A stretch of 64,000 bases of DNA from Prorocentrum cordatum (GCA_963575745.1 CAUYUJ010000032.1:1-64000), one strand, 5' to 3'; positions 5,340 to 47,185 are shown, counted from the stretch's first letter. Notes: generated by a model from the letters alone, not told the origin. A program made the numbers and translations.

Positions 5340-5500
5340 TTGTCGAAGGCGCCTACAGCGAATCACCGCCGCCACCTGCCTCTTGGAAGCGCCTACGTGG
5401 CCGAACGCCGGGGCCGGAGCTCGGCCGAGCTGTTTGATCACGGGTTCCCCCAGCCGTTGCGGAAACCTTGTGGAGAACACGTAGAAGAGGAGGAGAGAGA
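5340..5500 (+). repeat. Dispersed ~150-bp repeat followed by a purine-rich/(GAG)n tract; related copies at ~6385-6530 and ~22110-22265
   Basis: Shared motifs aa(t/c)caccgccg...tggcc(g/a)aacg...cagccgttg(c/t)ggaaac...gaacacgt. Confidence 0.7.
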
Positions 5501-5569
5501 GGAAAGAGGAGGAGGAGGAGGAGGAGGAGGAGGAGGTGGAGGAAGAGGAGGAGGAGGAGGAGGAAAAGA

Positions 5570-6250
5570 AGGCCTCTTGGGAGCCTCTTTTGGGAACCCT
5601 TGGTGAACTCTTGGGGCATCCTGGGAGCTTCCTGGGGGCCTCGTGGAGGCCTCTTGGGGGCCTTTGGGGCTCACTGGGAGGCTCTTTGGCCGAGGGCGTT
5701 CCAGGCCCGCACGACGCCATCGGAAGCCGTCTTGGGTGCCTCTCTGGGCCCCAAGTCGGCCTCTTGAGGCGCATCAGGGCCGTTTTGGAGGCCTTCTTCG
5801 GCGTCTTGGAGGTCTCCTGGGCCGTCTCGGGGCCCTCTTGGGGCCGTCTTGGGGGCTCTCGTGGGGCCGTCTTGGAGGCCTCTTGGGTTGTCAGGGGGCC
5901 ATCTCGGAGGCCTCTTAGGCGCTTTGGGGGCCATCTTAGTGGCCTCTGAGTCCGTGCTTGACCCTCAGAAAGCCGAAAAGGAGCAAATGCCCAAATCTCC
6001 CAAACACCTAAGGAAAACCAATGTTGTTGGCCTCTTCGGACCTTCCTGGAGTTCCTCTTGGAGGCCGCTTGGGCCGCCTTGGAGGCTTATTGGGCCGTCT
6101 TGGGCCATCTTAGAACCGTCTTGGGTGCATATTGGGGCTATCTTGGGCTTTCTTGGGACTATCTTAGCCGTCTTGGAGGCCACCTTGGCCGTCTTGGACG
6201 CCATTTTAGAGCCATCTGGAGTGGAAAAAGCCTTGCCGACCGGGTCTGGC
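5570..6250. repeat. Degenerate ~11-bp CTCTTGGGGC/CTTGGGCCGT minisatellite family; also at ~17850-19320, 21340-21810, 28990-29650, 31700-33800, 48135-50280 and 53900-54090
   Basis: Dense recurrence of (t)cttgg(g/a)g(c/g)c on both strands. Confidence 0.85.
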
Positions 6251-16068: not shown

Positions 16069-16295
16069 AACTAATACTGCTTTCCTAGGGGCTCCAACTT
16101 CTATGTAGGGTCGCACTGGGGTAATTTCGGCTTCTCGAGCCGCGTGCAGGCTCCACGGCCAAAAACAAGCGATCTCGGGCGAAAGACTGCCCAGGACGGA
16201 CCCAGATTTTGAGCGACGACGACGACGACGACGACGACGCCGGCCACGCCGCTGGCCGCCGCCACCGCCGCCGGTGGCGGCGACGACGAGACGAC

Positions 16296-16342
<47 letters not shown>

Positions 16343-16405
16343 CGATGACGACGACGACGACGACGCCGACGACGACACGCCGACGACGACGACGACGACG
16401 ACGAA

Positions 16406-16437
<32 letters not shown>

Positions 16438-16870
16438 CGGTGGCGGCGACGACTATGACGGCGACGACGACGACGACGGCGACGGCGACGACGACGACGG
16501 CGGTGACCAGTTTTTCCTTCATTTCGGCCTCTTGAGCCGCGTGCAGGCTCCACGGCCATCTAAAAGCGATCTCGGGCGAAAGACAGCCCAGGACGGACCC
16601 AGAGAGGAGTCTAGGAATAGATTTTGAGCTGGCTCTGGTCGGACGACGACGACGACGATTTTGACGGCGGCTTTGACGGCGACGGCGGCGGCGACGACGA
16701 CGGCGACGACGACGACGCCGACGCCGACGACGACGACGAGAGCTGCGGTGGCGGCGGCGGAGGCGGCGGCGACGACCATGACGACGACGACGACGACGAC
16801 GCCCATGACGACGACGAAGACGACGACGCCGACGACGACGACGACAACGACGAAGGCGACGACGAAGGCG

Positions 16871-16948
<78 letters not shown>

Positions 16949-17227
16949 GCGGCGGCGGCGATGACGACGACGGCGGCGACGACGACGACGACGACGGCGG
17001 CGGCGACAACGACGGCGACGGCGACGGCGACCAGTTTTTCCTTTATTTCGGCCTCTCGAGCCGCGTGCAGGCTCCACGGCCATCAACAAGCGATCTCGGG
17101 CGAAAGACTGCCCAGGACGGACCCAGAGAGGAGAAGAGGAATAGATTTTGAGCTGGACGACGACGACTTTGACGGCGGCTTTGACGGCGACGGCGGCGGC
17201 GACGACGACGGCGACGACGACGACGCC

Positions 17228-17259
<32 letters not shown>

Positions 17260-17308
17260 CGAGAGCTGCGGTGGCGGCGGCGGCGGCGACGGCAACGACG
17301 ACCATGAC

Positions 17309-17352
<44 letters not shown>

Positions 17353-17577
17353 CCACGCCGACGACGGAGACGACGGCGGCGACGAAGGCTGCGACGACGA
17401 AGACGGCCGCGGTGTCGACGACGACGACGACAACGAACACGGCCGCGATGGCGGTGGCATTTGCGACGACGACGACGACGCGGCGACGGCGACGACGACG
17501 GCGACGAAGACGGCGACCACGACGACGACCACCACCACGACGGCGACAACGACGACAACCACCTCAACGACGACGAA

Positions 17578-19815: not shown

Positions 19816-22387
19816 CACCAACGCGTGGGCTTCCAAGTCAAGAACACATCCAGATACGGCCCCTCTGGCGAAGCACGCGCGATCGTTATAGCATCTATAC
19901 CTCTAACTGTCTTACGATATATATATATATATATATATTGATCGATCCCACTGTCTATGTATCGATATCGCGACCTATCCATGGATGTTACGATCAATAT
20001 GTGTGGCGATCCGTCTATGTATCGGCACGACTGGCTATTTATCGATCTCGCGATCAATCAATCAATCATTCCGTCGGTCAACCAATCAGTTTACGATCGG
20101 GACAGCCATCAGGCCAGCCATCGGGACAGACATCGCCACGGGACAGTTGCGAAGCACCCGTGGGCCCACTCCGCCAGCCCGATGGGAGGAGAGAGTCCTT
20201 TGCGTCGGCGCCGCCCCGGCAGCGGCGGGATCTCACTCCCCTCGCCCCCGCGCGCGCAGCTTCGCCTTTGCCCGCACGCACGGAGCATACACGAAACCGA
20301 GACCGACCTTTTGGTTTAAGTCGGGCCTGTCCCTCTACAGGAGGAATGCTCAAAAGTGGCCAAAAATATAGACTGGGGACGGTTGTTTTGGCATTTGTTG
20401 ACCACTTCGGTGCATTATTTGACTATCTTTAATGTCTCGTCCAAAATGCGGGCCCGACTTATTCCTTGGTGCAGGCTCCGTTTCACTACGATCTCACCCC
20501 CACCTTCCGATTTTGTATGCGTATATACGCATAGTTGTATACATCATTATGTACATTTGCCTAGTTGTACATAGGTATATATAGCGACGACACCTTCCTG
20601 GTCCCTTCACCCCGCGCTGGTCATTTTGTCCTCCACCTTCCAGCAGCGGTCTTCGGCAAGGTCGCTTGCCCACGTGGTCCGCATCTCTGGTTGTCGTTCA
20701 TTGTGCTGATGGCTCTTCATGCCCGCGCGCTTTTCGCGCTTTTAGGGTCCCAGTGCTCGCTCGTCTCCTCAGCCTTACCTTAGCGGATTCCATTGCGGAT
20801 GCTCGCACCTGGTTGTTTTGCTTCGAGATGATTGACGGCGCTGCACGGTTGTTCCCTCATCCTTGCCGGGCTTTCCCCACGGATTCCATGTTCGGCTCCG
20901 CCCTCATGCCCGCCCTGAATTTCAATGACTTGCACTTCGGCACGCCCACGAAGACCTCCGTGGCTTGAGTGCGGCTCCCTCGCCCCACCGGCCTCTCCCG
21001 CCGCCTCGCGCACGTTCTTCTTGTCTCCCCGTGCCTCGCTGTGCTGTGGCGCGCTCCGCCACTGCTCGACTTCCGTCTGACTCTCTCGAGGCCACTGACA
21101 AAAAAGTGTGTGTGTGTGTATATATACACACACATAAACATACGTACGTACGTACGTACATACAGACTGATTGACTGACAGACAGACATACACACATCTG
21201 CATACAGACAGACATACATACATACATACAAACTAGAAAAATAATGGCCCTCGGCCCATCCCGTCACCGTGCCATCGGCCTCTTGTCTGTTCGTTGGGAT
21301 GTCATGGGGATCTCGGGGGCCTGCTGGCGGCAGTGATGGGGCGTCTTGGGGACCTCTTGGGACCTCTTGGGGGCTTCTTGGGGCCTCCTGCGAGTATTTT
21401 GGGGCACAACACATTGTCCGTTCGGACTCACCCTCTTGGGCCCCACTTGGGCCGTCTTGAGGCTCTCTTGGGCCGTCTGGGGCGCCTCTTGAACAGTCTT
21501 GGGGCCCTCTTGGGCCGTCTTGGGGCCCACTTGCGGGCCTCTCGGCCGTCTTGGGGCGATCTTGGGGGCGTCCAGGGCCGTCTGGGAGCGTTGAGGAGCC
21601 GAAAAGGCGAGAACGCCGAAGACGCACAAAAGCCAATGGAAAAGCAATGATTGTGGCCTCTTGAGGCCCTCTTGGGAGGTATCTTGGATGCCTCTTGGGG
21701 CGTCTTGGAGGCCTCTTGGGCCGTCTGGGGGCCATCTTGAGCGTCTTGGAGCAATCGTTCGGCGATTCGGGGCCCTCTTGGACGGTCTTGAGGGCCTCTT
21801 GGGACGCTCTTGGCTTTGGGGCGGGCCCTTCAGGGTCCGAGAAAGCCATGCGGGAAAATGTGCCTGGGCCCGGGGGGAATGCCGGAAGCCCCGAGAGATT
21901 TCAGATTTTGGGGTCTGGGCCCCTTACAGAATCCTCGGAATCGAGGACTGGGGTTTTTGATATCAGGCCAAGGAGATATACCCCTATAAGGCCAACCAAA
22001 GGCCGATATTGGGAGAATGAACCCAAAGACCGGACAACCATCGAGACAACCGTCTACATCCATCTAAACATCTTGATCCATAGATCCAGCGATCGATAAC
22101 ACGACCTATCCAAGACGCCTACGGCAAACCACCGCCGCCCCCTGCCTTTTAGGATACGCCTATGTGGCCAAACGTATGGAAACCGTTGTGGAAACCCTTC
22201 GGGGACCATGCGTTCTCTCAGCCGTTGTGGAAACCCTTCGGGGAACACGTGGGGGAAGGAAGAGGAGAGTGAGGAGAGGGAGGGAACAGGACGAGGAGGA
22301 GGAGGAGGAGGAGGAGGAAAAGGAGGCCTCTTGGGAGCCACTTGGGACACTCTTGGGGCCTCCTGGAAGCTTCCTGGGGGCCTCAAT

Positions 22388-30000: not shown

Positions 30001-30159
30001 GGGGCCAGGGGGCAGTTTGAGCAGGAAGATTTTCCCTGTCGAAAAACAGGGTGCGAGCGTCGACGGGCACACTTTGATTGATAAAAAACAGTAAGCACCG
30101 GTGGGGGGATCAACAATAATTATTTTTCAGGAATGAGAATTAAACGACAGTAACAACAA

Positions 30160-30208
<49 letters not shown>

Positions 30209-30245
30209 AACGACAACGACAACGACAACAACAACAACAACAATT
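26190..30245 (+). repeat. Diverged ~1-kb modular repeat (40-bp subrepeats, conserved block, (AAC)n), 3 copies, interrupted at ~28380-29810
   Basis: ggcgggagccgtt(g/a)tt...gggcc...aggtgcga...aatgaga.tt followed by (aac)n at ~26765, 28065 and 29975. Confidence 0.75.
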
Positions 30246-30279
30246 ACACTACTACTACGACTACTACTACTACTACCCT

Positions 30280-30333
<54 letters not shown>

Positions 30334-30340
30334 GACTACG

Positions 30341-30377
<37 letters not shown>

Positions 30378-30477
30378 NNNNNNNNNNNNNNNNNNNNNNN
30401 NNNNNNNNNNNNNNNNNNNNNNNNNNNNNNNNNNNNNNNNNNNNNNNNNNNNNNNNNNNNNNNNNNNNNNNNNNNNN
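30378..30477. other. Assembly gap (100 N)
   Basis: Run of N after (ACT)n. Confidence 1.
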
Positions 30478-30479
30478 TG

Positions 30480-31151
30480 GCAGTTATAGCGGCGACATTA
30501 AACCTGGCGTGTGGGTCAAGCGCTCTGCTGGTTTACGGGCAGATGATGATTGGTTCGATGGGAGAACATTCGAAGAATGTGCAAGACCAATTAGCTTTGT
30601 TGCTAGCCCTAGCAAAACTGCTGGGCGTGGTGGTTGGACTCGCTGTCGTTGAGAGCTGTGATCGCCGCCGCTTGCTAGGCTTGGGAGGCGCATCCTGTCT
30701 GATTTGCCTGCTGGTGGCGACTGTTGGCGCCTTTGCGAATCTGATGCCCGTGGTCCTCGGCGGCATATGCGGCTTCCTGTTCTCTTTCTTCTGTTCTTGG
30801 GGCACTGCGACCTGGGTGGTGGTGGCCGAGCTGACCGCCGGTTTCGGCCCCAAGTACGGTAACGCTTCTCAGGCAGCGGCGACCGCGATGATCTTTCTTG
30901 CCGGGGGGGCGACAGAATATGTATCCCCCACAGTTTGGGAAGTGTTCGGTGATTGCGGAATGCTTCCATATGCGGCAGTTTGCCTCTGCATGATCCTGTT
31001 CAGCTTCTTGATGCTGCCAGAGACGAGGGGGTGTTCCTTGCAAGAGTGCACCCAGAGGGTAATCAGCAGCAGCTACAATGTCGTCAGCGTCTCTTATTCG
31101 GATCTTGAGTCAACTGATTCGGATCTTGAGTCAAGCTCGGGGGCGCCATAG
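30480..31151 (+). CDS. MFS sugar-porter family transporter, C-terminal half (5' part lost in the gap)
   Basis: Several hydrophobic helices, ESCDRRRLL (D-R-x-G-R-R-like loop), SWGTATWVVVAEL and LPETRG (PETKG motif); the frame is open from the gap edge to TAG at 31151. Confidence 0.85.
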   Translation, partial: AVIAATLNLACGSSALLVYGQMMIGSMGEHSKNVQDQLALLLALAKLLGVVVGLAVVESCDRRRLLGLGGASCLICLLVATVGAFANLMPVVLGGICGFLFSFFCSWGTATWVVVAELTAGFGPKYGNASQAAATAMIFLAGGATEYVSPTVWEVFGDCGMLPYAAVCLCMILFSFLMLPETRGCSLQECTQRVISSSYNVVSVSYSDLESTDSDLESSSGAP

Positions 31152-34100
31152 ATTTTCACTCGGGGTTGAGCTGTCGAGCTCCGTATAAGGCCTGCCATGT
31201 AGAATCTCGTGCCACAAGCAGGTGAGGCCCGGGTGAGGCAATGGAGGCATGGATGGAGGGCGTTGCCAAATTATAGAGTCTTTATTCGTTTGTTTTACAA
31301 GTTTGCCTAGTGCGGTGTTCCGAGTTTGGCCCGATACTGCGTGCCGAGCTTCGCCATGCACTAGTGGTACTGAACACATTTTGTGTGTCTGTTTTTTAAT
31401 GTTATGATGAGCTTGCCCTGGGATCGGGCACGTGAGCCCCACCATGCAACAGACTGCTCCTGCTCGGCCACGCTCGTGGGGTGGAGCATGCTTGGGGATG
31501 CAGAAGAAGAGGCACTTGTGTACATATATCTATATATGCATATATATATATATATATAAATAAATATATGTATATATATTGTATATATATACACATATAT
31601 ATATAATATTTGTATATATATATATATATATAGAAACGGGGGCCGAGGTCCCGGACCCTGACCGCAAATGTGGGGCCTGGCGCCGGGAGCCCTGCCGGGC
31701 GCTTCGGGGGCCGTCCAAGGTCGCCCGAAGATGGCCTCGGAACGCTCGAGAACGCGCTCTGGTGGCTCCGAATGCCTTTCCAGACGACTCCCATGACGCC
31801 AGGAAGGCCCCCGAAGGCCCCGAAGACGCCCGAAGAGGCACCCCGAGAGAGCCCCAATGAGCAAAAGTCGTCGGTTTCCCGTAGGGGAACTGATGTTTTT
31901 GGCGTGTTCGCCTTTGGGGCTTCCACTGCGTCCAAGACGGCCCAAGAGGCACCCAAGCTGGTCAAGGATGCCCCCAAGAGAGCCCCAAGACGGCCCACGA
32001 GGCGCCCAAACCGCCCGAGAACGCCCCAAGGCGTCGCCCAAGACGGGGACGAGGAACTGGAAATTTTCGTCTTTGGGCCCAAGAGACCCCCAGGAGACCC
32101 CAAGAGGCTCCAAGAAGCGCCCCAGAAGCCCCAAGAGGCCCCCATGAGACCCGAAAAAATACCAAAAGAGGCCCCGAAGACGCTCCAAGAGGCAACCCAA
32201 TAGAGCCCCAAATATGCAAAAATCGTGTATTTCCTCTTGGAAAACTGATGTTTTTGGCGTGTTCGCCTTCTGGGCTTCCACTGCGCCCAAGACGGCCCAA
32301 GAGGCACCCAAGACGGCCGAGGATTCCCGCAAGAGGGCTCCAAGACGGCCCACGAGGGGGCCAAGACGGCCCACGAGACGCCTAAACCGCCCAAGAACGC
32401 CCCCCAGGAGCCCAAGAGGCATTTCTGGGGAGCCTCCTCAGCGCCCCAGGAGGGCCCAAGACGCCTCCCAGGATCCCCCAGAATGCGAAAGGATGGTCCA
32501 AGACGCTCCCAAGCAGCCCAAGTCAGCCTTCCGACGGCTCGAGGCTCCTAAGAGACCCGAAGAGAGGTCCGAGAGGCGTCCCAATACGGCCCGAAGAGGC
32601 CAAAATCGTAGATGTTCATATGTTTTTCAATGTTTTTGGCTTCTCGTGTTTTCGAGCTTCCAATGGTCCAAGAACGTCGAAGAGGCTCCCAAGACCACCG
32701 CAAGACCACCCAAGAGACCCTCAGGACGGCCCCAAGACGAGCCAAGAAGGCTCCAAGATTGCCGAAGAGGCGCCGAGGACAGCCCCGGACCACCCCAGAA
32801 CAGGCCCCAAATGGGCCCAAGAGCGGGAACAGGAGGCTTCCAGAGACCTCCGATAGGCTTCCAGGGCCCCCCAGAGACCCTCAACACACCTCCGATCCTT
32901 GAGATGCCCCAGAAAGATTCCGACGAGGCTCCAAGAACAGCCTAAGAGAGCTGCGAGAGCCGTCCCGAGAGAGCCCGAAGAGGGTAAATCGTTGATTGCG
33001 AAGGCCTTACGGCCAGTGCCGCCGACCCTGAGAACGACGAAGATGAAAACGAGGGGGGGCAGAAGGGAGGAGGATGAGTGGGAGGTGGAGGAAGGGTGGG
33101 GAAGGTGGATGAGGGAGGAGGAGGGGGGAGAAGGATGTGGAGGAGAAGCAAGAGGAGGAGAAGGAGGCAGAGGAGAGCAGGAGGAGAGGGAGCAGAGGGG
33201 GGGGGAGGAAGAGGAGGAGGAGGAGGAGGAGGAGGAGGAGGAGGAGGAGGCAGAGGAGGAGGAGGAGGAGGAGGAGGAGGAGGAGGAAGAGGAGGAGGCC
33301 AGAGGCTTTCTTGGGACAGCCTGGGGCTCTCTTGAGGCCGTCTTGGGCCGTCCAGGACTCCTCTTGCGCCGTCTCGAGGCACTCTTGGAGGCTTCCTGGG
33401 CAATTCGGGGCTCTCTTGGGCTGTCTTGGGGCAATCTTGGGGGCCTCTTGGGCCGTCTTGGCGGCTTCTTGGGCCGTCTTGGGGCCCTCTTCGGCCATTA
33501 GGGGACCCTTTGGGGGGCCTCTTGGGCCGTCTCGGGGCGATCTTGGGGGCCTATTGGGCCGTCTTGGCGCGTCGGGAAGCGGAAGAGGCAAGAACGCCAA
33601 AATTTGTCAAAAACGTATCGGAAATCCATGAATTTTGCCTCTTGGGGCTCTCGTGGGAAAACTCCTGGAGGCCTCTTGGGGCGCTTTGCATGCCTTTTGG
33701 GCCGTCTGGAGGCCGTCAAGGCGTACTGGACAGATCGTTCGGCGATTTTGGGTTCTCTTGGATTGTTTTTGGGGCCTCCTGGGGCACTCTTGGCCCGTCT
33801 TCAGGCTTTTTTGGGCTCCGGGACTCCCCAGGGGGGCGTCGTATCTGACCCCCCCCCGGACCCCCCCCCCACCCCCCACCCCCCCTGGCGGGGAAGGGAT
33901 CGAAGGGAAGGGGCTTTCCTTCGACTCAATTATGACGTTGCTCAACTTCGCTTTGGTTGGCACGCTGAGGACGTCCCTGGAAAACAGGGGAGCTTCGACG
34001 AGCCCAGGGAGAGGGGGAGGCAGGGAAAGGGGACGACAGAGACGACGACCAACGAATGACGGAGATGGCGACTTGCACGGACAAGCTCCGCACACACGCC

Positions 34101-35460: not shown

Positions 35461-36628
35461 CTAACCGCGAAGATAAGTGAGAAAACACCAAAAAAAGACT
35501 GGGGCCTCGACAACAACGGAAACTAATCATTATTCCCCGCCGCCGCCGACGACAACACCGACGACGACGACGACGAGGGGGAGGAGGATGGGGGGGGGAA
35601 GGGGAGGACGAGGAGATGGAGGAGGACGCCTTGAAACTCTGAAAGGCTGAATGCTCTGAACTTCACTGCTCTGAAACTCTCACTGCTCTGAAAATCATTG
35701 CTCTGAAACGCATCGCTCTGAAACTCAGTGCTCTCAAGCGCATCGCTCTGGAATTCATTGCTCTGAAACGAAACTCATTGCTCGAGAGCGCCCCCAAAGG
35801 CTCACTGCTCTGAAACTCTCACTCTGAAAGGCCAAGGGCCCACAACACTCACGACATGCATGCCAAGGAGATCTGTTCCTCGTCTTCCTGCTTCTCCTCC
35901 TCCTCCTCCTTCTCCTCCTCCTCCCCCCCCCCCTCCTCCTCCTATATTTCGACTCGCATTGCAAACCTTCGCGCGAACAAACTCGAAATGCCCTTCGCGT
36001 GGAGGGCAGCCCAGGAGGCACTGTCCGATGGGAGAACAAAACATGCCCACCATTATTCAACACGGCGCGCATTAGTGGGAAACTACTTATTCACCCTCCT
36101 CCTCTTCCTCCTCCTCCTCCTCCCTCCTCCTCCTTCTCTCCTCCCCTCTACCTCCCCTTCTACCCCTACTTCTCCTTCTGTGTTTCATTCCTCCTCCTCC
36201 CTTCCCCCCCCCCCCCCCCCCCCCCTCCTCTTCCTCCCCCCCCCCCCCCCCCCCCCCCCATCCGATGCATCGCTTCGCACTGCAAGCCTTCTTGCGAACA
36301 AGCTCGAAATTCCTTTTCGCGTGGAGGCAGCCCAAGAGGCATTGTCCGATGGGAGAAATAATCGTCCACCACTATTCGGCACGGCGCGCACACGAGTGGG
36401 AAACTAATTCCCCCCCTCCTCTTCCTCCTCCTCCTTTTCCTTATCCTCCTCATCCTCCTCCTCCTCTTCCTCCTCATCCTCCTCCTCCTCCGCCGCCTCC
36501 TCCTCCTCCTCCTCCTCCTGTTGGCTCATGTTGGCTCCATAGCAGTCTGTTACCGCTGGCCAAGCCTGCAATAAAGCTGCGAAAAACAGTGCTGGGTGAA
36601 GAAGTTGGATAATTAGATCCGAGAGGGG

Positions 36629-39600
36629 TCACGCCGCCTTGGACGCCCAGCACAACCCATCCCAGACCAGAGGGACCGACCTCCCCACAAACTTCTTTGT
36701 GCTGGGGTCGATCCCTCCCTTGAGCATCTTCAAAGAATCCTCTGCGTGCCGATTGCGCGGACCCCCGTGGCATTCCTGGAGGAGGTAGGGGCGGGCCCGA
36801 GCGCTTCCAAAAGCAGCGCAACGCACACACCAGGCGACCCTCCCCCCCATCAGCCACAGACGATGGCTCTTGTGGCAGGTCCGCGCAATCTTCGGTGGCC
36901 CTCCGCAGGGAAACACACAGACCGCGGCGCGAGTCTTCCCTCGCTCGCCGCAGTGGAGACACAAATATAAACCTTTTGCTACACACTCGATCGCATGGCC
37001 TCTCGTGTCTGGGACCAGCTCCAGGAGAGACGGCTTGGCCCGACGGGGCCTGCGGATTTTGGAAACGTCAGGAAAACCACGGGCCGATAAATCATCCACG
37101 ATTTCTGCAATCAGCCACGCCGACTGCCGAATCAGCGGCTCCAAACCTTTAAACTGCACACGCGTCCAAGGTTTGTGGGGTTGGGCCTCGGCTCCACGAC
37201 GGGCCAGTTCATCAGCCTTCCTATTACCCCGCCATTTCCAATCGTATACTGCAGACCTACGGGCCTGGGCCAGGGAGAGGTGAGACCTAATCTTAGTCAC
37301 AGTAATCCTATCGGGGCCGATCTCAGTCGCAAGCCTGAAGATGTCCACCCAGAGCTCCGAGAAAGCAACCTTTTCCAGATCCTGAGTAGGTCCCAAAGTC
37401 CAGGTGTCCAGGACGGCCTTACAGTCTGTGACAATCTCCATGGCCCCTGGCCCCGCGAGCCTCAAAGCCATGACCAGCGCATACACCTCCCCGCAGCCGC
37501 TGGTCTGAACCGCGTGGGGCAGCGGTCCGAACGCAGACCCAGTAACATATCCTCCCCAAGAGTCCAGAGACATGGAGACGACCGCCCATCCAGCCCTCGT
37601 GAACTGAGGTAACTTGGGGTCCAATCCAGACCCATCCAGACATATTCTCGGCCCCAGGTGTCCCCCAGGAGGGAACACATCCCACTTGTGACCAGCTACG
37701 GTGTGCGGCGCTGGCCACTGCCACTCTGGACTCGGGGCAAGCGCACGGGTGACCAGCAACTGATTAGCGGGCGTGCAATCCAAGGCGAGAAGGTCACCCA
37801 CACCAAGATCACGCCGAACAGCGGCATGAGCTGGGCAGCAGCGGAAGCGATGACTGGGCGTGCCCAGCCGCTCTCCACAGAGCTGGCAAAGGGGGTCCAC
37901 AACACGACGATCATCATACAGAGTAAGCTGGGTTGGGTAGCCTCCAGAAACGATCCCAGCAAGTCCCGTGGCCGCCGTGAACCTTTCTTCTCCCCGAAGC
38001 TTCTGAAGGACCTCGATGACAGGTTCGGGCATAGGCCCTCCAGAAAGACCTGGGACTCTGACCCCATCTCCCAGACCTCTAAGCTGCATATCCCGAACAG
38101 ACTGGTGAAGGACAACCTTGAGCGACCTGTATCCCAAGAAGCTCACATCCACTTCCACTCCCCGAAAAGTCACAAACTTACACCAGCTTTTTACCTGCCA
38201 ACCCAGCCTTTCGATCGCGAGGACAACTGCGCCCGCGGGTCCACGGACATCTTGCCACCCACGAGCAGGTCGGTGATAAAATGAATTGAAACACTCCTCC
38301 ATGACACGCTGCTCTGCCCAGCTCAAGCGAGCGGCTTGTCCCCAAGCAAGGATGGGCAACGCGTGCACATCATATGATGGATCCGCCTTGGGCTCCACCG
38401 AGAGGGGAAACTCCAACGTCCTGCACCTCCCTTTTGGCGTCCCAAAAAGCGCACTCCCCAAGCCAGCTCGAAGCTGACCAAGGGCGGAGGTGGACATACC
38501 ATTGACGCGGCAACCGTACGTGGCCGAGGGAAGGCCTCCCGTCCGAGCAACCTTGAACAAACCCTTCTTGGCACTACTGAGCCCACGGAGCCTGCCTTTC
38601 CGAAGCCTGATTTTGTGCAACCGTTTTTGGAGGACCTTGGATCCCTTGGCTCCTTTCTGCATCGTCTGGTCGCAGCCCAGGTTCCGTCCAGAACTAGCAC
38701 CAGTGAAACTCCACTTCTTAAGCCTAGACACAATGGTCACCCTCGCCGCCGAGTGACTGCAAAGGACGAGGCCCTTCGACCTCGAGATCACCAGCAGCAG
38801 CTTCTCGAGCTGCAGGCACAGAAAGTACACAGCACGGGGCAGGACGCTCTCGACATGTTTCCTACTGCCCGAAGCCTGCGCCGTGATGTCGTCTACTACA
38901 TTGGGCAGCAGAGCTATCGGGCGAAAACCTCACTCGGGCTTCCCCAACATGGCGAGGATGGTAGTGAGGAGGATGGTGGGGTAGGTGCCCAAGAGCTCCA
39001 TCTTAGGCCACAGCGCACCCAAAACCTCCAGCAGGCCATCCGAGGCCTTATCCAGGTCCCGAGGCCGAAGTGCATCCACCCCAGCCGCCGTCCTTTTCGG
39101 GAACTTCCTGATGGCAGCCCTGATGTCTCCCACTGACCGCTCCTCCGAACACAGCTCCTGGACCGAGACTCCCTGCTCGTCAGCCTGGGCCTGGATCTGG
39201 TGCGTCAGGAACTGGATGGGATCGGGGAACTTCGAGGCCTCTGGGAGGGGCTCCCAGATATCACACCAAAACTTGGCAAGCCCGTCAACCGTCTCTTGTG
39301 GTCCTTGCCAGCGCCAGCGGACACAGCCTCCTGCACCCACTCGCGCCAACGCTTGCCCCGCTCCGAGGTAAACTTGCGTTCATACACTTTGGCGAAGCCT
39401 TCTGCCTCATCGCCCCAGGCCTGCAACTGCTCGAGGGAGGCGTGAAACAGACGTCCAAAAGACGGGACCCACTGCTGCCAGGACGTGCCTTTGCGCAACT
39501 GATTAGGTCCCCACTCGACCGCCTTCAGAAGCCCCATAGACTCGCCTTCACCCCATCTGAGTCCCCGTCTCTTGAGGTAAACCAGCTCCGAGAAAAGCTT

Positions 39601-40640
39601 GGAAACGCGACGCCACCCACGACTCTCAGGACTTCCGACGGGATACCGACCTCCAGACGTCCTGACAGCTGATACTTTCACAATGGTAGGCCCCACCGCT
39701 CTACCAAAGTACTGCTTCTGATCCAAAACTCCGTGATAGGTTCCAAGCTCACGTTCCAGCGACTCGGCGAAAACCCGATAGCACGCATCCAACGACTCAC
39801 GATCCCCAACCGATCGAACAGAGCCCAGGAGCTCCCGATAATCGAGTGGTTCTGGCATGGGTCCTATCACAATGTCCTGCGGGAAGGCCCTCGGCTGGCG
39901 GAGCGACTGGACCAGCACGCTCAAGGGCTCGCTGCGAAATTTGACCACGACGGGCCAGTGCGGCTTCGTCGACGCCTTCCTACTGATGGCACAAGAATGG
40001 ACGCTGGCCGCCAGACCTGCAGACATCACAAAGTAGTCAATCGTTTTCCAGACCTTGGCAGTGGACTTACACGTGTAAGACGCTGGCTTCACCATCTGTC
40101 CCCCGAGACGGCCAGCCCACCCCAACTCCTGGAGTCTATCTGGCGAAACGTTCCAGTCACCTCCAAGGACAAACGGTAAGCCCCAAGAATGTAACTGCTC
40201 TCCGATTCTATTCAAAATTTGGCCCCCAGTAAGCCCCACTGGGTCCTGGTCGGGCAAGTAGATGGACCCAATGATGAGCCCCCCTGGCACATACGCGTTG
40301 ACCCACATCAGCTGCTGGCGATGCGGGCTCGGCAAGCGCTTGACGTCCGTCGGCGGCATGCCCAGCCCGACGAAATCCCTGCACGCAACCGTGACGCCTC
40401 CTGACAGGCCTCCAGCCTCGGTGACCTCCGACGGGCGAAGGGACGCCTGCCAGCCTAGCTTTTTCAACTGAGCTTCGCAATCCACTCGATCCGACGGGTC
40501 AACAGTTAGTTCCTGAAGCATGACGATATGACTCGACGCTTCCCCCTGGAGAGACTGCTTTGCCGAGGACCAAGCCGTGGTATTACAGGCTTCTAGACAG
40601 AAAAACTCTCCCTGGCGAGACCTGGCCGATTTATTCTTAA
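36629..40640 (-). pseudogene. LINE ORF2: APE endonuclease, partial RT, CCHC, RNase H, Cys/His-rich tail; start approximate
   Basis: APE motifs ACNTT, MLQE, SIYLP, GGDWN, TIDYF, PHWPV. RT motifs AAGVD, GKPE*GFRPIALLP, VVDD, RNLG. Zinc motif CQLC..H..C. RNase H motifs LDGS, GEVYAL, VTDC, IRSH, GNRKADELA. Frameshift near 39300 and a stop at 38930-38932. Confidence 0.9.
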
Positions 40641-40855
40641 TCTGCCCTGGCTGGGCTAGCCTACTCTTACGAACAGCTTGGGGCCCTGTAAGAGGCCAGG
40701 CACTAGGGGGAAGAGGAAGAGCTGGGGACGGCAGATCGGGGAGGTGGGATGTCGGCGGGGGCGGGGGCCAAACCAGCGACCGAAAGAAGATCCCAGGCGG
40801 CCGCGAGGGGCCAACCGCCGCATTGCCCCACCAGCAAGTGGGGCAAGGCAGGCCG

Positions 40856-42064
40856 CTACCCACCAGACGTTTTCCCTTGGGCCCCTCCTGCCGCCCCAGA
40901 CGCGCCTGGGACGCCTCCAGCTTCCCTTCCAGCACCGCTTCCTCCTCCCTTGCTGCCGAGAGCCTCGGCGGCCCTAGCACGCACGTCCACCTTGGGAGAG
41001 CTGGCAGTGGCTCCGCCACCGCCCGAGCCTCGCACAGGGCTGTCAGGGGCGCCAGGGCCTCCAGCAGCAGCAGCCGCTGGAGGAGCAGCACCACCAGGCG
41101 GCTCAGCACAGCGCTGCCCGCCGCCCCCGGAGTTGCCCTCGGCGCCCTTCCGCTTCTTCTGCAACCTGCTGACGTGCGCGGAATGCTCCTGACGCAACTT
41201 CTCCGCGGTCTCCTTGGCTCCTCCGAATAGCTGCTTCGCCATGCCCTGCACTCCTTTGCGCAGCTGCTCCTTCCTGGCAGCTGCCTCCTTCTTGTCCGTG
41301 TCGGTGAACTCATAGATGTCAGCAAGTCCGAAGAAGTCGTCGCAGCCGTCCAGGTCGATGCACGACGTGTCTCCTGCAAGCAACTGCTCCAAATTGATCT
41401 TCGGTGCCGCGGGCTGGTCGCTGTGGGCCTGGCTGTACATGGCCCTGAGCAAACCCTTGTACTCGTCGTCCGCGTCGCCAAGCTTCGTCTGCAGCAGCTG
41501 GACCTCCGTCTCCTGGTCTGCGACCGCCCGGCGTAGCCGACCCAACTTGTCGATTGCTGCCTCCAGCACCTTCTCAAGATGCACGATCTGCGCGTGCGCT
41601 CGGTGCGCACGCACCTGCAGCGGCGGTTCCTTCGGCTGGACCGCCTCCTTCTGCTTGAACTCCAATAGCTTCTGGTACTTGGTGACCATCACGTGGTCAC
41701 CCGTCTCAGTGCCAAGGCTGATGAGCTGCTGGATCTCGGCCACCGAGAGCTGCGCGCCCCCGTTGCCCAGGCCAGGGGGGGGGGGGGGCTGCAAGCCGAC
41801 CGAGCGGGGCGGGACGTCCGCCGCGAGCATGCCCTCCTCCTCGGCGACGGGCTCGTTCCAGGCGACGCGGCAGCGCACGCAATACCAGGAGCTCCAGCCG
41901 TTCTTCTTACAACCACAGAGCTGACACTGCCACTTCCGATGGGGCCCCTTCGAACCTCCTCGCTTGTTGCTGCCACGCTCGTCAGCCCAAGACACACTCT
42001 TCTGGTGTCCGCCTGCTGCATCTCCCCAAGCCATGAGAGAGCTCGAACAGGAATCTTGGGCCAC
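40856..42064 (-). CDS. LINE ORF1 (402 aa) with RanBP2-like zinc finger and coiled coil
   Basis: WQCQLCGCKKNGWSSWYCVRC; heptad-like central region; first ORF after the SL. Confidence 0.8.
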   Translation of the reverse strand: MAQDSCSSSLMAWGDAAGGHQKSVSWADERGSNKRGGSKGPHRKWQCQLCGCKKNGWSSWYCVRCRVAWNEPVAEEEGMLAADVPPRSVGLQPPPPPGLGNGGAQLSVAEIQQLISLGTETGDHVMVTKYQKLLEFKQKEAVQPKEPPLQVRAHRAHAQIVHLEKVLEAAIDKLGRLRRAVADQETEVQLLQTKLGDADDEYKGLLRAMYSQAHSDQPAAPKINLEQLLAGDTSCIDLDGCDDFFGLADIYEFTDTDKKEAAARKEQLRKGVQGMAKQLFGGAKETAEKLRQEHSAHVSRLQKKRKGAEGNSGGGGQRCAEPPGGAAPPAAAAAGGPGAPDSPVRGSGGGGATASSPKVDVRARAAEALGSKGGGSGAGREAGGVPGASGAAGGAQGKTSGG

Positions 42065-42146
42065 AAGGTGTGGCGAGTATGCGGGTAGGTAGGACCCTCA
42101 CCCTGGGCAGGGCCACTGATCGAGGGTCGCGCGGGTCTCTGACCAG

Positions 42147-42160
42147 CTTTAGCCAAATGG
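42147..42160 (-). other. Relict spliced leader
   Basis: CCATTTGGCTAAAG versus the expected relict CCATTTTGGCTCAAG (1 deletion, 1 substitution), directly 3' of the full SL. Confidence 0.85.
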
Positions 42161-42182
42161 CTTGAGCCAAAATGGCTACGGA
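42161..42182 (-). other. Full 22-nt dinoflagellate spliced leader (genomic copy)
   Basis: Minus strand reads TCCGTAGCCATTTTGGCTCAAG, an exact match. Confidence 0.97.
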
Positions 42183-42752
42183 CCTCCTCCTCCTCCTCCT
42201 CCTCCTCCTCCTCCTCCTCCTCCTCCCCCTCCCCCCCTTCCTCCTCATCCCCCCCCCCCCCCCTTTCATCCTTCGACTTTGATAAACGGAGGAGGAGGGA
42301 GGAGGACGAGGAGGACCAGGGGGAGGAGGAGGATGAGAAGGAGGAGGAGGAGGGGGCAAGAGGAGGAGGAGGAGGGAAGGAGAGGGAGGAGGTTACTTAA
42401 CATACCAGGCAGCGAACTCAGCCGCATGGCCCCACGTCGACCACAGTCACGGCCACCTGGCCTGCAGAGGGGGGGAGGAGGAGGCCTGAGGAGAAGGAGG
42501 AAGAGGCTTGAGGTGGAGGAGGAGGAGGAGGAGGAGGAGGCCTGAGGAGGAGGAGGAGGAGAAGGAGGAGGAGGCTTGTGGAGGAGGAGGAGGAGGAGGA
42601 GGAGGAGGATGTTATGGAGGAGTAGGAGGAGAAGGAGAAGGAGGAGGAGGAGGAGGAGGAGGAGGAGGAGGAGGAGGGGGGAGGGAGGAGAGAGGACCCG
42701 TTTATTCACCGCCGGAAGCTCCAGGGGGGGGGTCAAAATTATAGACATTTAC

Positions 42753-45700
42753 AGGATGGCAAGCACGACGATAAGAAGCTCAACGGACATTGCGGCCGAT
42801 GCGGAAAGTGGGGACATCGCCAGCGGGACTGCTACGCCAGATTCAACAACGTCACGTCGACGGATGGGAGAATACAGCTGGAGCGAAAGTCCGAACTGGA
42901 GTGCGACCTGGGACACCGCCGGCAGTACGAGGGACAACGGCGACGCGGCGGCCAGCGGCCAGTAGGACGAGTCGAAGGTGAATGCAGGTGCCGTCACGTG
43001 CCGTGCGTGTGAGGACGAGGCCTGAGCGTTTGCCGTCGGCGGCGTCGAGGGCCCTGTCAGGACGCGTGCTGGAGAGATCGTCGACATCATGGTGGACACA
43101 GGCGCCAACAAGTCGGTGCCCAGACCTAGAGATTTCCCCGACTACCCGATCATGCAGGATCGCAAGCTGGAGATCAAGGTTGCGAATGGCGCGTCCCTCA
43201 AACACTACGGAGACAAGCAGGTGAACCTGATGACCGAAGACGACGAGGACACCAAGGTGAGGTTTCACGTCACTGAAGTCACAAAACCGATCCTCAGTGT
43301 CAACTGCATCAACAAGGCAGGAGCTGGGTTGGATTTCCCACCACCGGGCTCGACGGGCCCACCCTCGATCACGCGGGATTCGAGGAGGGGGCGATCACGG
43401 CTGGGGCTTAAGAGGATGTTCGGGCTGTTCTTCCTGCGCGCGACCTTCCTCAGCTACGCCCAGACGAAGCTCGGTGTGGACGGACTGGTCATTAACAACA
43501 CGGCTACGGAGAACCCAGACTAGCACGTCGCGGCGTTGATGGACGAACCAGTGGAGCCGACGGTACGACCTGAGGCAGAGGTGGTGGCGGTCCCGAACGA
43601 GGCTACGAAGGCGGAGAGAGACGCCCATGAAGCTCTCCAGTGTCCGCATGCAGCGCGGTGCACGGAATGCGTCGCAGGACGTGGCCTGGACAACAAACAC
43701 GAGAGGGTCAGGGAGATCGACGCTCTTCCCGTGGCCCGAATAGATTATATGTTCGGCAAGACGCGGCACGACGAGAAGGCGCACCCAGTCATGAACGCGA
43801 TCGACAATGCGTATGACGCCACGGCATCGATATGGTGCGAGGCGAAAGGAGGTGGAGATTTGTTCGTGATAAAGAGTCTGAAGCGGCATGTGCGGAGGCT
43901 CGGGTTCTAGCAGGTCATCTTCCAGCGTGACCCCGCGAACGCAGCAGCAAGGGACGCAGCGGCGAAGGTGGCGACTGACTTGAAAATGAATTCCAGGTCC
44001 ACCCCCAAGGCGAGCAAGGGCAGCAACGGCACGTTGGAGCGATTCTACTCTTTCATCGAGGGCACGCCGAGGACCTGGAGGAGGGCCATCGGAAGAAAGT
44101 ACGGGATCGTGATCGAGCCGCGGCATCCCATCATGGCCTGGATCGCGCGGCACGCCTCCTGGACGCACGATCGGTTCCTCGTCCACCGCTCCGACTACAA
44201 GACCTCGTTCGAGCGCCAGCACGAGAGGCACTGCGACAAGAAGGCCCGCCACTGGGCGAGACGGTCATGCGGCGGCAGCCTGGGCCCATCGCCGCGAAGT
44301 TCGAGACCGCCCGGGGCTGCGGCATCTACCTGGGGCCTTCGCTGGAGGACGACCAACGCATCTGCGGCGCGCGACGCGGCATCACCCTGGCGAGACCGGC
44401 CCGACGGCTGGTGGAGAGCGAGCGGCACGACAAGCAGTTGTTGCTCGCGATGAAAGGCATCCCTGGGGATACCCGCCCGACCAACGCGTCGGCGCCAGTG
44501 GTCGACAGGGTCGCCGAGGCCTTGGACTTGAACCAGCCGAAGCCCACCAGGCCTCCCCGGCCCGAGGGCGCCGCGGCGCAGGAGGGGCAGGCCGACCAGC
44601 CTCGGCCAGCCAGGCCCTAGGCGCAGCGAGAGGGTGACTCGGCAGCTGGCGCCGCGCCAGCCGCCGACGAGGGCGCGCGCGATGAGGAGATGCGCTATGA
44701 CGACGCGGAGGACGGCAATGCCTTGCCGGACACGACGTCCAAGGAGTTCACGCCAGGTTGCAGTGGATGCTTGGGCACATCGCACCGACCCTCGATCTAT
44801 CGCCTCCAGAGGAGGAGACTGACCCCCCGAGACACACGCAGCAAGCGGGCTGCTGGCGAGAGCTCGGCTGCGCCAGATTCGAAGCGCGCGGCAGTCGAGG
44901 AAGCTAAAAGCGCCGCTGGCAAGCGGGCCAGCGAGGCGCCCGCGGAAGGCGAGGCGCGCGAGAAGGAGAGGAAGGTCCAGGCGGTGAAGGTTGGCAACGT
45001 GATGGTCGCCAACGCTATGGGCTACCCCGAGGGCACCGAGCTCTGCGCCCCGTGCGAGCTCGACCCGAACTTCGAGCTGCTGAACGAGGCCTACTACGAC
45101 GACGACAACGACGACGGCGAGCAGCTCGACATGGACCAGGTCCGCGAGGGCATCGAGCGAGAGGCGAAGTTCATGGAGTCGCTCGACATCGGCGAGGTGG
45201 TCGAGCGCCCACACGGCAAGAAGGTCTGGGGCACGCGATGGTGCCACTGCAAGAAGGGCGACGGCGTTAGGAGCAGGTTCGTCCTGAAGCAGTTTAAGGA
45301 TGCGCAGGCAGGCGACTTCCTCGCTTGCGCCCTCCTCACGGAGGCCGCGCCTGCGCCGATGGCGGCGGCGACGATGCTCGAGCACAGCATTGCGACGACG
45401 GACTCCAGCGTGACTTTCACGCACACGCCAGTGAAGGAGGACGCCGAGATCTATGCGGGGATGACGCCTGCGTACGGGATGGGTTACGGCTTCGTGTGGA
45501 AGCTGAGCAAGTCTCTCTACGGGCTCAGGGAGGCGGCGCTCAGGTTTCAGGAGCTCTCGGGCGCATCGCGGTCGGCCTTGGCTTCGAGGCGCGCAATGCC
45601 GAACCCGCCATCTACCGCCACAGGGAGAAGGGCATCAGGGTCGTTGTCCACACAGACGACCCCCTTGCCCCGGGCCCGACGCAGGGCGTGCACGACGAGT

Positions 45701-47185
45701 TCTTCGACGAGCTGGCCAAGCATTATGCGATCCAGGGGCGGCGCGTTCCAGGCGAGGACCCCGTGATCAACTTCGGTTCGTCGTTGCAGCAGTTCGGGGG
45801 CGTGGTCGTGGAGAAGAGCAAGCCTGTCTACGTGGAGAGCATTGTCAAGGCCGCGGGGACGCCGTGCTGCAAGACGGCGGGCACTGCGGGGGCGAGGCCA
45901 GACCTCGCACAGCCTGGAGCCGAGCAGCTGCTCAAGAGCGAGGAGCACGCGCTGTGCCAGGGGTGCCGCGGGACGATCCAGTTCGCCACCCCTCGGAGGC
46001 TGGACGCGACGCACCCGCTGAAGGAGCCGGGCAGGCGGCTGAGCGAACCACGCTCGGCCGACATGAAGTGCCTGAAGCACCTCCGCTACCTCAGCGGGAC
46101 GATCGACCTGGCGATGGTTCATTGCTCTTCGCGAGACTGGAAGCGTCTGCGAGGGAGCACGGACTCGGACTGGACTGGATGTCCGGAGACACAGAAGTCG
46201 ACGGCTTGCGGGATCGTGCGATGGCGCAGCGCGGCCGCGAGTGCCTACGCGCGCACGGAGTCGGTCTTGGCCCAGTCGAGCCCTGAGGCCGAGTACCAGG
46301 CGGCGGTGGAGCTGGCGGCGGAGATGCTGTACGTCCGCGAGCTCGTCAGGTTCATGGGCTTCGAGACGTCCCGGGAGATCGAGCGCGACGCCTCCTCTGC
46401 CATCGCGATCGCCTCGCGACGAGGTCTCGGCAAGCTGGGCCACCTGGAAGTCGAATGGCGTCGGCCCCAGCAGCTCGTCGGAACGGGGCAGATCAAGATC
46501 CCGAAGGCGAAGGGCACGGAGAACCGACCCGACGTCGGCGCGACGTTCCTGGGCAAGGCTGCGCTGGAGAAGTGCCGTTCTATGCTGGGCATGACGCCCG
46601 TTGGGATGTATGGCGCTGGGACTGCGGCGGCCCTGACGGCGACAGGGGGGGCACGATACATGGCAGCGTTCATGGCGATGGTGAACGCGGCAAGAGCCGA
46701 GACCGCGACCACGGCAACTACGACGGCCACTACGACTGCACCGGAGGTGCACGTGATGATTGCCCCGGTCGGGTCGGGGTTCTGCATGCTGACGGGGATG
46801 ATGCTCGCGATCTGCGGCACGGTTTTGCGACAACAACAAGGGGTGGCGAGCGCGAGTGCTGGTGCTACGACGCAGGTGGAGCCTGAGCAGGAGCGGGAGC
46901 CAGATCCGCCCGCGCCTGCGAGTCGAGCGCCACCCCCAGACGACGAGACGCACGGCGGTCCACTCGTTGGCGCGGCGCAGCGGACTTCAAGGGCATGCCA
47001 GGCGATTGATTCCACGCGCTGGCTGCCTGATCTGCACGAGGCCCGTGCCAGTCGGCACGCCGCAGATGTTTCACACCAGCACCGAGGAGTCCGCGATCCA
47101 CGCTGACGAGAGCTGCCGAGGCCTTCGGCCAAGGAAGCACCGCATGATCTCGAGGCGGGCGTGCGCGCTGTGCTTTGCACGGTGA
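42753..47185 (+). pseudogene. pol: Copia gag zinc knuckle and pol (PR, INT, RT, RNase H, C-terminal extension), multiply disrupted
   Basis: Zinc knuckle CGRCGKWGHRQRDC; protease IMVDTGA; integrase HEALQCPHAARCTECV, IDYMF, SNGTLER; RT GTRW..RSRFV, KSLYGLREA, VHTDD; RNase H TDSDW, SSPEAEY, DASSA, GTENRPD. Confidence 0.92.

Follow-up and report, generated by a model that had tools for sequence, protein, structure and literature searches.

The subject of this analysis is an apparent long interspersed nuclear element (LINE) in a 64,000-nucleotide (nt) stretch of DNA from the dinoflagellate Prorocentrum cordatum (GCA_963575745.1 CAUYUJ010000032.1:1-64000). The whole stretch is referred to as the window, and positions are counted from its first letter. 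The element occupies 36520-42182 on the minus strand, where the sequence reads, in order, as (GGA)n, a full dinoflagellate spliced leader (DinoSL; SL), an SL relic, a 5′ untranslated region (UTR), open reading frame (ORF) 1, ORF2, a 3′ UTR, and again (GGA)n. The upstream microsatellite is perfect over its last 44 bases (42226-42183) and stops directly at the first base of the SL, and the downstream microsatellite is perfect beside the element and degenerate farther out. Two copies of a 9-nt motif, 10 nt apart, close the 3′ UTR immediately ahead of the (GGA)n tract, and neither poly(A) nor an A-run is seen at this 3′ end on reading the sequence. No long terminal repeats (LTRs) or other terminal repeats of the element's own were found, and the sole direct repeats around it are the microsatellite flanks. 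The only N gap in the window (30378-30477) is 6 kb from the element.

Coding Content and State of the Copy

ORF1 is intact; a zinc motif with four cysteines at its N-terminus is followed by a stretch resembling a coiled coil and then by a low-complexity tail. ORF1 has no significant Pfam family, and a word-index protein search returned no relatives. The zinc motif, which we take by eye to fit the RanBP2-type pattern (Pfam E 1.5), is not used as evidence. The N-terminal part of ORF2 has no in-frame ATG near its start and matches Pfam Exo_endo_phos at approximately 40533-40000 (E 3.7e-5), with 24.0 bits, just under the curated cut-off of 24.5; similarly, the RNase_H match of ORF2 scores 18.7 bits, below the curated cut-off of 25.8. 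The assignments of an apurinic/apyrimidinic-type endonuclease (APE) and of RNase H are based on alignment to relatives. The endonuclease region is collinear with the N-termini of the relatives P0004, P0008, and P0018, and a cysteine-rich domain follows the RNase H at the C-terminus, with the stop codon at 36631-36629.

An exhaustive protein search with the C-terminal 766-aa frame of ORF2 identified 1532 relatives at E≤1e-3, including 497 at E≤1e-10, whereas a word-index search with ORF2 returned just two distant matches. Eight full-length relatives (1285-1762 aa) all contain RVT_1 (E 6.5e-10 to 3.9e-4, above the curated cut-off in three of the eight), and RNase_H is found in four. The nearest named clusters of a protein atlas, "Pol-like protein" of arthropods with APE, RVT_1, and RNase_H (score 0.93), provide only a lead to RNase H-bearing LINE clades, and a PDB sequence search with a full-length relative gave no match. 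With ORF1 upstream of ORF2 and the APE N-terminal to the reverse transcriptase (RT), the element is, by its predicted domains, an APE-type non-LTR retrotransposon of a dinoflagellate, comprising ORF1 and an ORF2 with APE, RT, a CCHC-like motif, RNase H, and a cysteine-rich end.

The copy in the window is dead, owing to a deletion of approximately 150 residues in the RT core, one frameshift, and one in-frame stop. In a tblastn comparison with P0004, residues 1-283 align to 40149-39313 in a single frame, and residues 348-420 align to 39124-38906 in a different frame at 42% identity, across an in-frame TGA at 38932-38930 within the N-terminal RT motifs; the frameshift is located between 39313 and 39124. 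Residues 572-1325 align to 38899-36668 (30% identity, E 7e-62), and residues 421-571, corresponding to the catalytic core of the RT, have no counterpart. RVT_1 was not found by Pfam in the window copy, which retains the first and last RT motifs alone. An earlier sequence-only reading of this DNA had proposed the same element order, without poly(A) and with an ORF2 of APE, RT, CCHC, and RNase H. The order and the missing poly(A) hold at the minus-strand coordinates given here, but the RT in that series of domains is not whole.

The Spliced Leader and Its Relic

No base is missing at the start of the SL that heads the LINE, and this SL agrees with the DinoSL consensus as quoted in the literature (PMC7245778). 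Since it is complete, the complementary DNA (cDNA) was extended up to the extreme 5′ end of a trans-spliced RNA. Two occurrences of the 21-nt SL core are present in the window, where 100 shuffles give an expectation of 0.00. Compared with the canonical relic, the relic directly behind the SL lacks a single T and has a C>A exchange; it retains 13 of the 15 canonical positions and starts exactly at the position left by re-splicing at the AG inside the SL. A full SL followed by a relic cut at this internal AG is the published mark of recycled cDNAs in the passages cited (PMC7245778; PMC12014239). Because the relic starts exactly after the AG, the RNA lineage of this copy received an SL in two successive rounds of trans-splicing, with SL-bearing copies acting as sources.

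From the way in which trans-splicing works, the second splice would have needed a precursor containing the AG of the old SL. The transcript of the second round would thus have begun upstream of the LINE, in host DNA, which would mean that the productive transcript in this lineage did not come from a promoter inside the LINE.

Microsatellite Flanks and a Second Retrocopy

Both SLs in the window adjoin the 3′ end of a same-strand (GGA)n tract. Perfect (GGA)n tracts of at least four units number 29 on the minus strand and occupy 1.2% of the length of the window, and the chance that a given site adjoins the end of such a tract is approximately 9e-4. Chance is rejected as an explanation of the arrangement of SL and (GGA)n because of this value per site together with the expectation of 0.00 SLs in shuffles.

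The second SL, 31 kb from the LINE, heads a retrocopy that is not a LINE (Table 1). No poly(A) beyond AAA is found at its 3′ end, and its repeat-rich ORF has no Pfam family. The first 200 aa of this ORF have 11 relatives at 54-70% identity, of which five are named from P. cordatum and sit in gene models with unrelated names; the N-terminus of the ORF fits a dispersed multicopy sequence. Evidence on microsatellite specificity comes from a single copy of the LINE and from the second retrocopy, in both of which the sense strand reads GGA at either flank. Two different RNAs have been copied into the same repeat type, in the same orientation, and with the same kind of ends. The proposal of the sequence-only reading that the LINE sits precisely inside a (GGA)n microsatellite is supported by the repeat on both of its flanks in one orientation, and the second retrocopy is placed likewise.

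Table 1. Positions of the LINE copy, the second retrocopy, and their flanking microsatellites in the window (TRF, Tandem Repeats Finder).
Feature	Position	Strand	Basis
5′ flanking (GGA)n microsatellite	42250-42183	-	TRF period 3, 22.7 copies; perfect-tract list
Complete 22-nt dinoflagellate SL, first base T, DNA-encoded	42182-42161	-	Exact match
SL relic, 14 nt	42160-42147	-	Sequence; TRF sees 14-nt tandem 42146-42177
LINE 5′ UTR, 112 nt	42146-42035	-	Sequence
ORF1, 392 aa, intact	42034-40856	-	ORF list
ORF2, N-terminal part: predicted APE and linker	40640-39313	-	Pfam, tblastn
ORF2, N-terminal RT motifs, frame differing from the endonuclease part	39124-38906	-	tblastn, P0004 348-420
Deletion junction in the RT, 6 nt between matching blocks	38905-38900	-	tblastn blocks stop at 38906, restart at 38899
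Rest of ORF2: C-terminal part of the RT to the stop	38899-36629	-	tblastn, P0004 572-1325
CCHC-like motif in ORF2	~37883-37830	-	
Predicted RNase H in ORF2	~37528-37190	-	Pfam RNase_H E 0.0021
LINE 3′ UTR, 109 nt	36628-36520	-	Sequence
3′ (GGA)n, tail or target microsatellite	36519-36415	-	TRF period 3, 35 copies
Second retrocopy, non-LINE	4995-2257	-	Sequence, SL match
(GGA)18, 5′ of the second retrocopy	4995-4941	-	
Full SL of the second retrocopy	4940-4919	-	SL match
Body of the second retrocopy, 2.6 kb, repeat-rich ORF with tandem peptide repeats	4918-2303	-	
(GGA)15, 3′ of the second retrocopy	2302-2257	-	

Several repeat features of the window lie beside these tracts or resemble them. 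At 42183-42356, the microsatellite switches strand approximately 10-30 nt farther out, so that an imperfect inverted repeat arises from its (TCC)n and (GGA)n arms. Directly behind the tail of the LINE, at 35945-36409 on the minus strand, are two units of approximately 150 bp that are 82% alike, with a G-run or (GGA)n tract behind each. A local duplication or the retroposition of short units may account for them; each has just its one neighbor copy in the window, and none was found in the SL loci fetched from public DNA. A 15/30-bp minisatellite (35637-35770) adjoins the GGA-rich region. Furthermore, similar sequence surrounds GGA-rich tracts at approximately 5440-5610, 22230-22360, and 33140-33330 on the plus strand. 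The upstream part at the first two of these contains a GAACACGT-type motif, seen again near 53690, and all three have a GGCCTCTTGGGAGCC-like downstream part, which suggests a dispersed repeat with a GGA-rich core.

Spliced-Leader Sites in Public Contigs

Independent DNA was obtained by an SL scan of public metagenome contigs and prokaryote metagenome-assembled genome (MAG) contigs, which represent a convenience sample. At least 155 distinct SL sites are present, comprising 35 SL RNA genes, 112 other sites, and 8 whose upstream sequence is too short for assignment to a class. Adjacency was scored as a tandem repeat of period 12 or less with its end within 3 nt of the SL. Among the matches listed, this is found at 17 of the 112 sites outside SL genes and at none of the 35 SL genes, and the control value is 19 of 3360 positions drawn at random from these contigs; a cruder earlier measure, again among the matches listed, gave 12 of 70 versus 22 of 1400. 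The repeat unit varies by contig and includes (TG)n, (CA)n, (TCA)n, (GTA)n, (TGGG)n, an 11-mer, and others. It recurs downstream on the same strand in four contigs (L052, L066, L070, and L024). The whole of L052 (minus strand) is taken up by a retrocopy of an HMG-box gene with an SL and a relic, and an 11-nt tandem repeat is present on both sides. In L066 and L070 the body ends in AAAA followed by (AC)n, and L024 is a weak, AT-rich case.

These contigs bear on the concern that the (GGA)n junctions are mis-joins made during assembly at a simple repeat. Microsatellites are typical points at which contigs break or are joined, and several of the public SL contigs start or stop in a repeat. The window, however, holds two elements with four such junctions and no gap nearby, and L052, L057, and L070 each span repeat, SL, and body within one contig; an artefact of this kind is consequently regarded as very improbable.

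The contig L057 closely parallels the LINE in the window. It reads as the cysteine-rich C-terminal end of an ORF2, a stop, a short 3′ UTR, and an A-run with (ATGTA)3. A complete SL comes next, and behind it lie a 5′ UTR and an ORF1 homologue. The ORF2 end is matched by phmmer to the relative P0020 (E 1e-6 among 151 sequences), and the ORF1-like protein is similar to ORF1 of the window (BLASTP E 5e-7, 24% identity over 166 aa), with the same zinc motif and coiled coil. On these similarities, L057 holds a second SL-capped LINE, placed head-to-tail behind the repeat tail of another copy.

The same contig gives some force to an explanation in which the repeats are a product of the element itself: its RT would make or carry the (GGA)n tail, short tandem-repeat tails being common among LINEs, and the 5′ (GGA)n would be the tail of an older insertion at which new copies land. 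L057 shows this head-to-tail order for a related LINE, with three tail units before the next SL, and the tracts beside the elements are perfect while farther ones are degenerate. Nevertheless, blastn detects no LINE 3′ end upstream of either 5′ (GGA)n in the window, and the explanation, judged unlikely here, is a variant of the reading of target microsatellites and not its opposite. It is also conceivable that the LINE landed by coincidence just behind the SL of an older retrogene, and that the SL was never part of LINE RNA. SL relics are indeed very common in dinoflagellates, and in two species about 22-23% of genes have one upstream (PMC5585692; PMC6050394), but for such a coincidence the LINE, with its 5′ UTR and ORF1 complete, would have had to land precisely behind the relic. 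L057 shows this order again, other copies of the family retain the last letters of the relic at the same place, and the coincidence is accordingly given very little credence.

Other contents of the public SL sites are as follows. Pfam analysis of 64 ORFs downstream of public SLs found no RT among the 64; apart from a single virus capsid and a single gag-like zinc knuckle, the matches were to genes of host type. The zinc knuckle is encoded in L056 (51-1016, minus strand), where a full SL stands approximately 60 nt before a gag-like ORF in which Pfam recognizes a CCHC zinc knuckle (E 3.5e-6); L056 may be an SL-capped retrocopy of an LTR-element transcript. Among the 112 listed sites outside SL genes, 27 have AT-rich upstream sequence (including L002, L018, and L061), and several of these have in common a TTGATAAATCAATTTTTTATTTTT-type motif approximately 20 nt upstream. 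L074 contains a capsid ORF of nucleocytoplasmic large DNA virus (NCLDV) type, and its SL site is not AT-rich upstream.

The Family in Public DNA Runs

The LINE family was surveyed by placing contigs of four public DNA runs, X1 and three metagenome runs, on the element. X1 provides 359 contigs, of which 106 are at 99% identity or more, 97 at 95-99%, 85 at 90-95%, and 71 under 90%; X1 may be the source sample, in which case its near-identical contigs are not independent. The three metagenome runs provide 27-48 contigs each on parts of the LINE. Because the X1 contigs span all identity classes, the family is multicopy, with old and young members. Within the window, blastn with the element as query matched nothing beyond its own sequence and the second SL. 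Beside the RT deletion junction, one X1 contig continues with other sequence at 38902 and one at 38903, consistent with copies that retain the missing piece of the RT.

In two further X1 contigs, the SL is joined directly to LINE positions 41740 and 39917, with one contig for each joint and 20-21 nt on the SL side. They look like 5′-shortened copies still headed by the SL and give slight support to a 5′ end derived from it. They also matter for the possibility that the RT jumped, at the end of the cDNA, onto an SL-capped cellular RNA or onto SL RNA, in the manner of U6/L1 chimeras. In the window copy neither 41740 nor 39917 is preceded by AG, and one of the joints is short of the last two letters of the SL, which speaks for such a switch; chimeras of LINE-1 with other RNAs are known (10.1101/2025.02.02.635956). 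Such a switch is held to be improbable. No SL-intron sequence follows the SL of the window copy, unlike the 35 SL genes listed in public contigs, all of which continue with GT and the intron; the relic starts exactly after the AG of the SL, as splicing predicts; and a complete 5′ UTR and ORF1 stand behind the SL both here and in L057.

Proposed Mechanism

The reading preferred here is that of a group of endonuclease-type LINEs that depend on SL trans-splicing for the definition of their 5′ end and on microsatellites for both integration site and tail; it is given a probability of roughly 0.7. The copying itself would be target-primed reverse transcription. In a first step, a genomic copy would be transcribed within a longer host transcript that starts upstream. 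Trans-splicing by the host would then excise the LINE RNA and cap it with the 22-nt SL, and in an SL-bearing source copy the AG within the old SL would serve as the acceptor, leaving a truncated relic. The ORF1 and ORF2 proteins would be translated from the SL-capped RNA. Subsequently, the endonuclease would nick the (TCC)n strand of a (GGA)n/(TCC)n microsatellite, and the freed 3′ end would prime cDNA synthesis at the 3′ end of the RNA, which would yield a (GGA)n tail and not poly(A). Reverse transcription would proceed to the very first base of the SL, and the second strand would also be joined inside the microsatellite, so that (GGA)n would flank the copy on both sides in a single orientation. 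The copied SL would renew the splice acceptor for the next round. The (GGA)n tract was probably present before insertion rather than being the tail of an earlier insertion, a case that L057 suggests to be possible. The same machinery may also make retrocopies in trans, and such action would account for the second retrocopy in the window.

Several observations weigh against this mechanism. The window is rich in GGA-type tracts, with 52 perfect tracts of at least four units. The LINE and the second retrocopy have no 3′ sequence in common apart from the repeat, and the RNA fold of the LINE 3′ UTR, calculated for this one copy, has a minimum free energy of -41.3 kcal/mol, where shuffled sequences average -41.2 (z -0.03). 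In the public contigs, among the matches listed, 14 of 18 repeat-adjoining SL sites have no matching downstream repeat within the contig, and tblastn and phmmer searches of 145 fetched SL loci found LINE ORFs in L057 alone. Furthermore, the single family copy that can be read end to end is a defective one. Finally, contigs of X1, X2, and X4 differ from the window copy upstream of approximately 42137-42148 and retain just the last 8 letters of the SL; a recognizable SL is not present in every copy, and the 5′ region of some copies may be longer and particular to them. The sequence-only reading had ascribed an SL-derived 5′ end to the whole family. This is upheld for the lineage of the window copy, with its SL and AG-cut relic, for L057, and for the two X1 contigs with direct SL joints, but for the whole family a dependence on the SL, or the lack of a promoter, is no more than a possibility, as other X1 copies differ upstream of approximately 42140. 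Priming of reverse transcription on (GGA)n/(TCC)n tracts, also proposed in that reading, is kept here as a probable step.

Relation to Known Systems

The closest parallel is found in the DinoSL-relict retrogenes, in which a full or partial SL is present at the 5′ end in DNA, relics are cut at the AG, and arrays arise by repeated rounds, as described in the cited passages (PMC7245778; PMC12014239; PMC5585692). The marks by which such retrocopies are recognized, a DNA-encoded 5′ SL and an AG-cut relic behind a newer SL, are both present in the window copy. The copied RNA, however, is here that of the retrotransposon itself, with ORF1 and ORF2, and the microsatellite flanks and the missing poly(A) do not figure in the passages cited for the retrogenes.

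Among microsatellite-specific LINEs, Togen at (TG)n, some HERO elements, Dong, and the families of Kojima and Fujiwara (2004) similarly have the repeat on both sides (PMC4640811). Those named in the passages of this source mostly encode a restriction-like endonuclease, whereas the LINE in the window is of the APE type by prediction, and neither a (GGA)n target nor a dinoflagellate host appears in its passages on microsatellite-specific LINEs. Host trans-splicing onto LINE RNA has a counterpart in Hydra, where SL-tagged transposon transcripts include a CR1 LINE and, according to the part of the report consulted, approximately 30% of Iso-Seq reads of transposable elements have a 5′ SL (bioRxiv 10.1101/2024.03.13.584568). 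The Hydra evidence is at the RNA level, whereas here the SL has been fixed in DNA in two rounds. As the SL is fixed in DNA copies, the SL-capped RNA is the template that was copied.

SLACS, CZAR, and CRE are LINEs specific for SL genes. Together with NeSL-1, they resemble the present case as LINEs beside an SL in organisms with trans-splicing, as far as the relevant passages describe them (PMC4640811). They differ in that they insert into SL RNA genes and encode a restriction-like endonuclease. An SL-gene-specific LINE of the SLACS, CZAR, or NeSL type was considered as an identity for the element and rejected, on the (GGA)n at both flanks, the lack of an SL intron, the N-terminal APE, and the C-terminal RNase H with cysteine-rich domain. 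The L1Tc/ingi elements of trypanosomes, with the Pr77 internal promoter and a ribozyme like that of hepatitis delta virus (HDV), also inhabit a host with polycistronic transcription and universal trans-splicing. L1Tc/ingi, in the descriptions available for comparison, sets its own 5′ end and has unspliced transcripts, whereas the LINE in the window appears to leave its 5′ end to the SL of the host. In LINEs of the L2/CR1 type, exemplified by UnaL2 of eel, tandem-repeat tails are recognized by the element's own RT in place of poly(A). The tail unit of L057 is presumably a rotation of that of UnaL2. The present LINE is similar to this type in its tandem-repeat 3′ tail and differs in having no stable 3′ stem-loop in the one copy folded.

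A full-text literature search of main articles found no description of dinoflagellate LINEs headed by an SL in DNA and none of microsatellite flanks on SL-bearing retrocopies. In agreement with the suggestion of the sequence-only reading, no description that matches the combination was met in the literature searched. The novelty lies in this combination; SL relics on retrogenes, microsatellite LINEs, and SLs on LINE transcripts are each known separately.

Other Features of the Window

The remaining features of the window include a 376-nt inverted repeat (179-554 and 1375-1750; 97% complementary), which encloses a 77-nt minisatellite in five copies and an (ATC)n-like tract. A copia-type RT fragment (44621-45766, plus strand; RVT_2 E 1.2e-6) is located 2.4 kb from the LINE. 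Host-type transporter gene fragments are found at 16085-17563 on the minus strand (CitMHS E 1.5e-10) and at 30144-31151 on the plus strand (Sugar_tr E 1.2e-14).

Implications for Dinoflagellate Retroposition

The source of the RT behind dinoflagellate retrogenes has been treated as unknown, and Ty1/copia is favored in the relevant part of a 2018 review (PMC6050394). Song et al. reported in the passages cited that RT-related genes are enriched among SL-relict genes, likewise with the source of the RT unknown (PMC5585692), and the LINEs of Symbiodiniaceae have been described as ancient remnants (PMC8045281). In two symbiotic species, SL relics are present at about a fifth of genes (PMC6050394; PMC5585692). 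For the RT responsible, the SL-bearing LINE is a concrete candidate, because it carries the SL and has a boundary signature in common with a retrocopy that is not a LINE. This signature, a microsatellite on both sides with no poly(A), can be counted genome-wide. Moreover, the element indicates a route for a LINE without an internal promoter, in which host trans-splicing would define and cap the 5′ end and the copied SL would renew the splice site.

As a tentative extension, which we regard as possible rather than probable, this LINE group may be the engine of mass gene retroposition in dinoflagellates. Its RT would copy any SL-capped RNA to the first base of the SL and insert the copy into a microsatellite, where the copied SL would act as a portable splice acceptor. 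Copying would begin near the start of the 3′ tail, and the LINE and retrogenes alike would be expressed from host read-through without promoters of their own. If true, this would explain the survival of so many retrogenes, the missing poly(A), and the occurrence of SL-headed retrocopies that adjoin simple repeats in many dinoflagellates.

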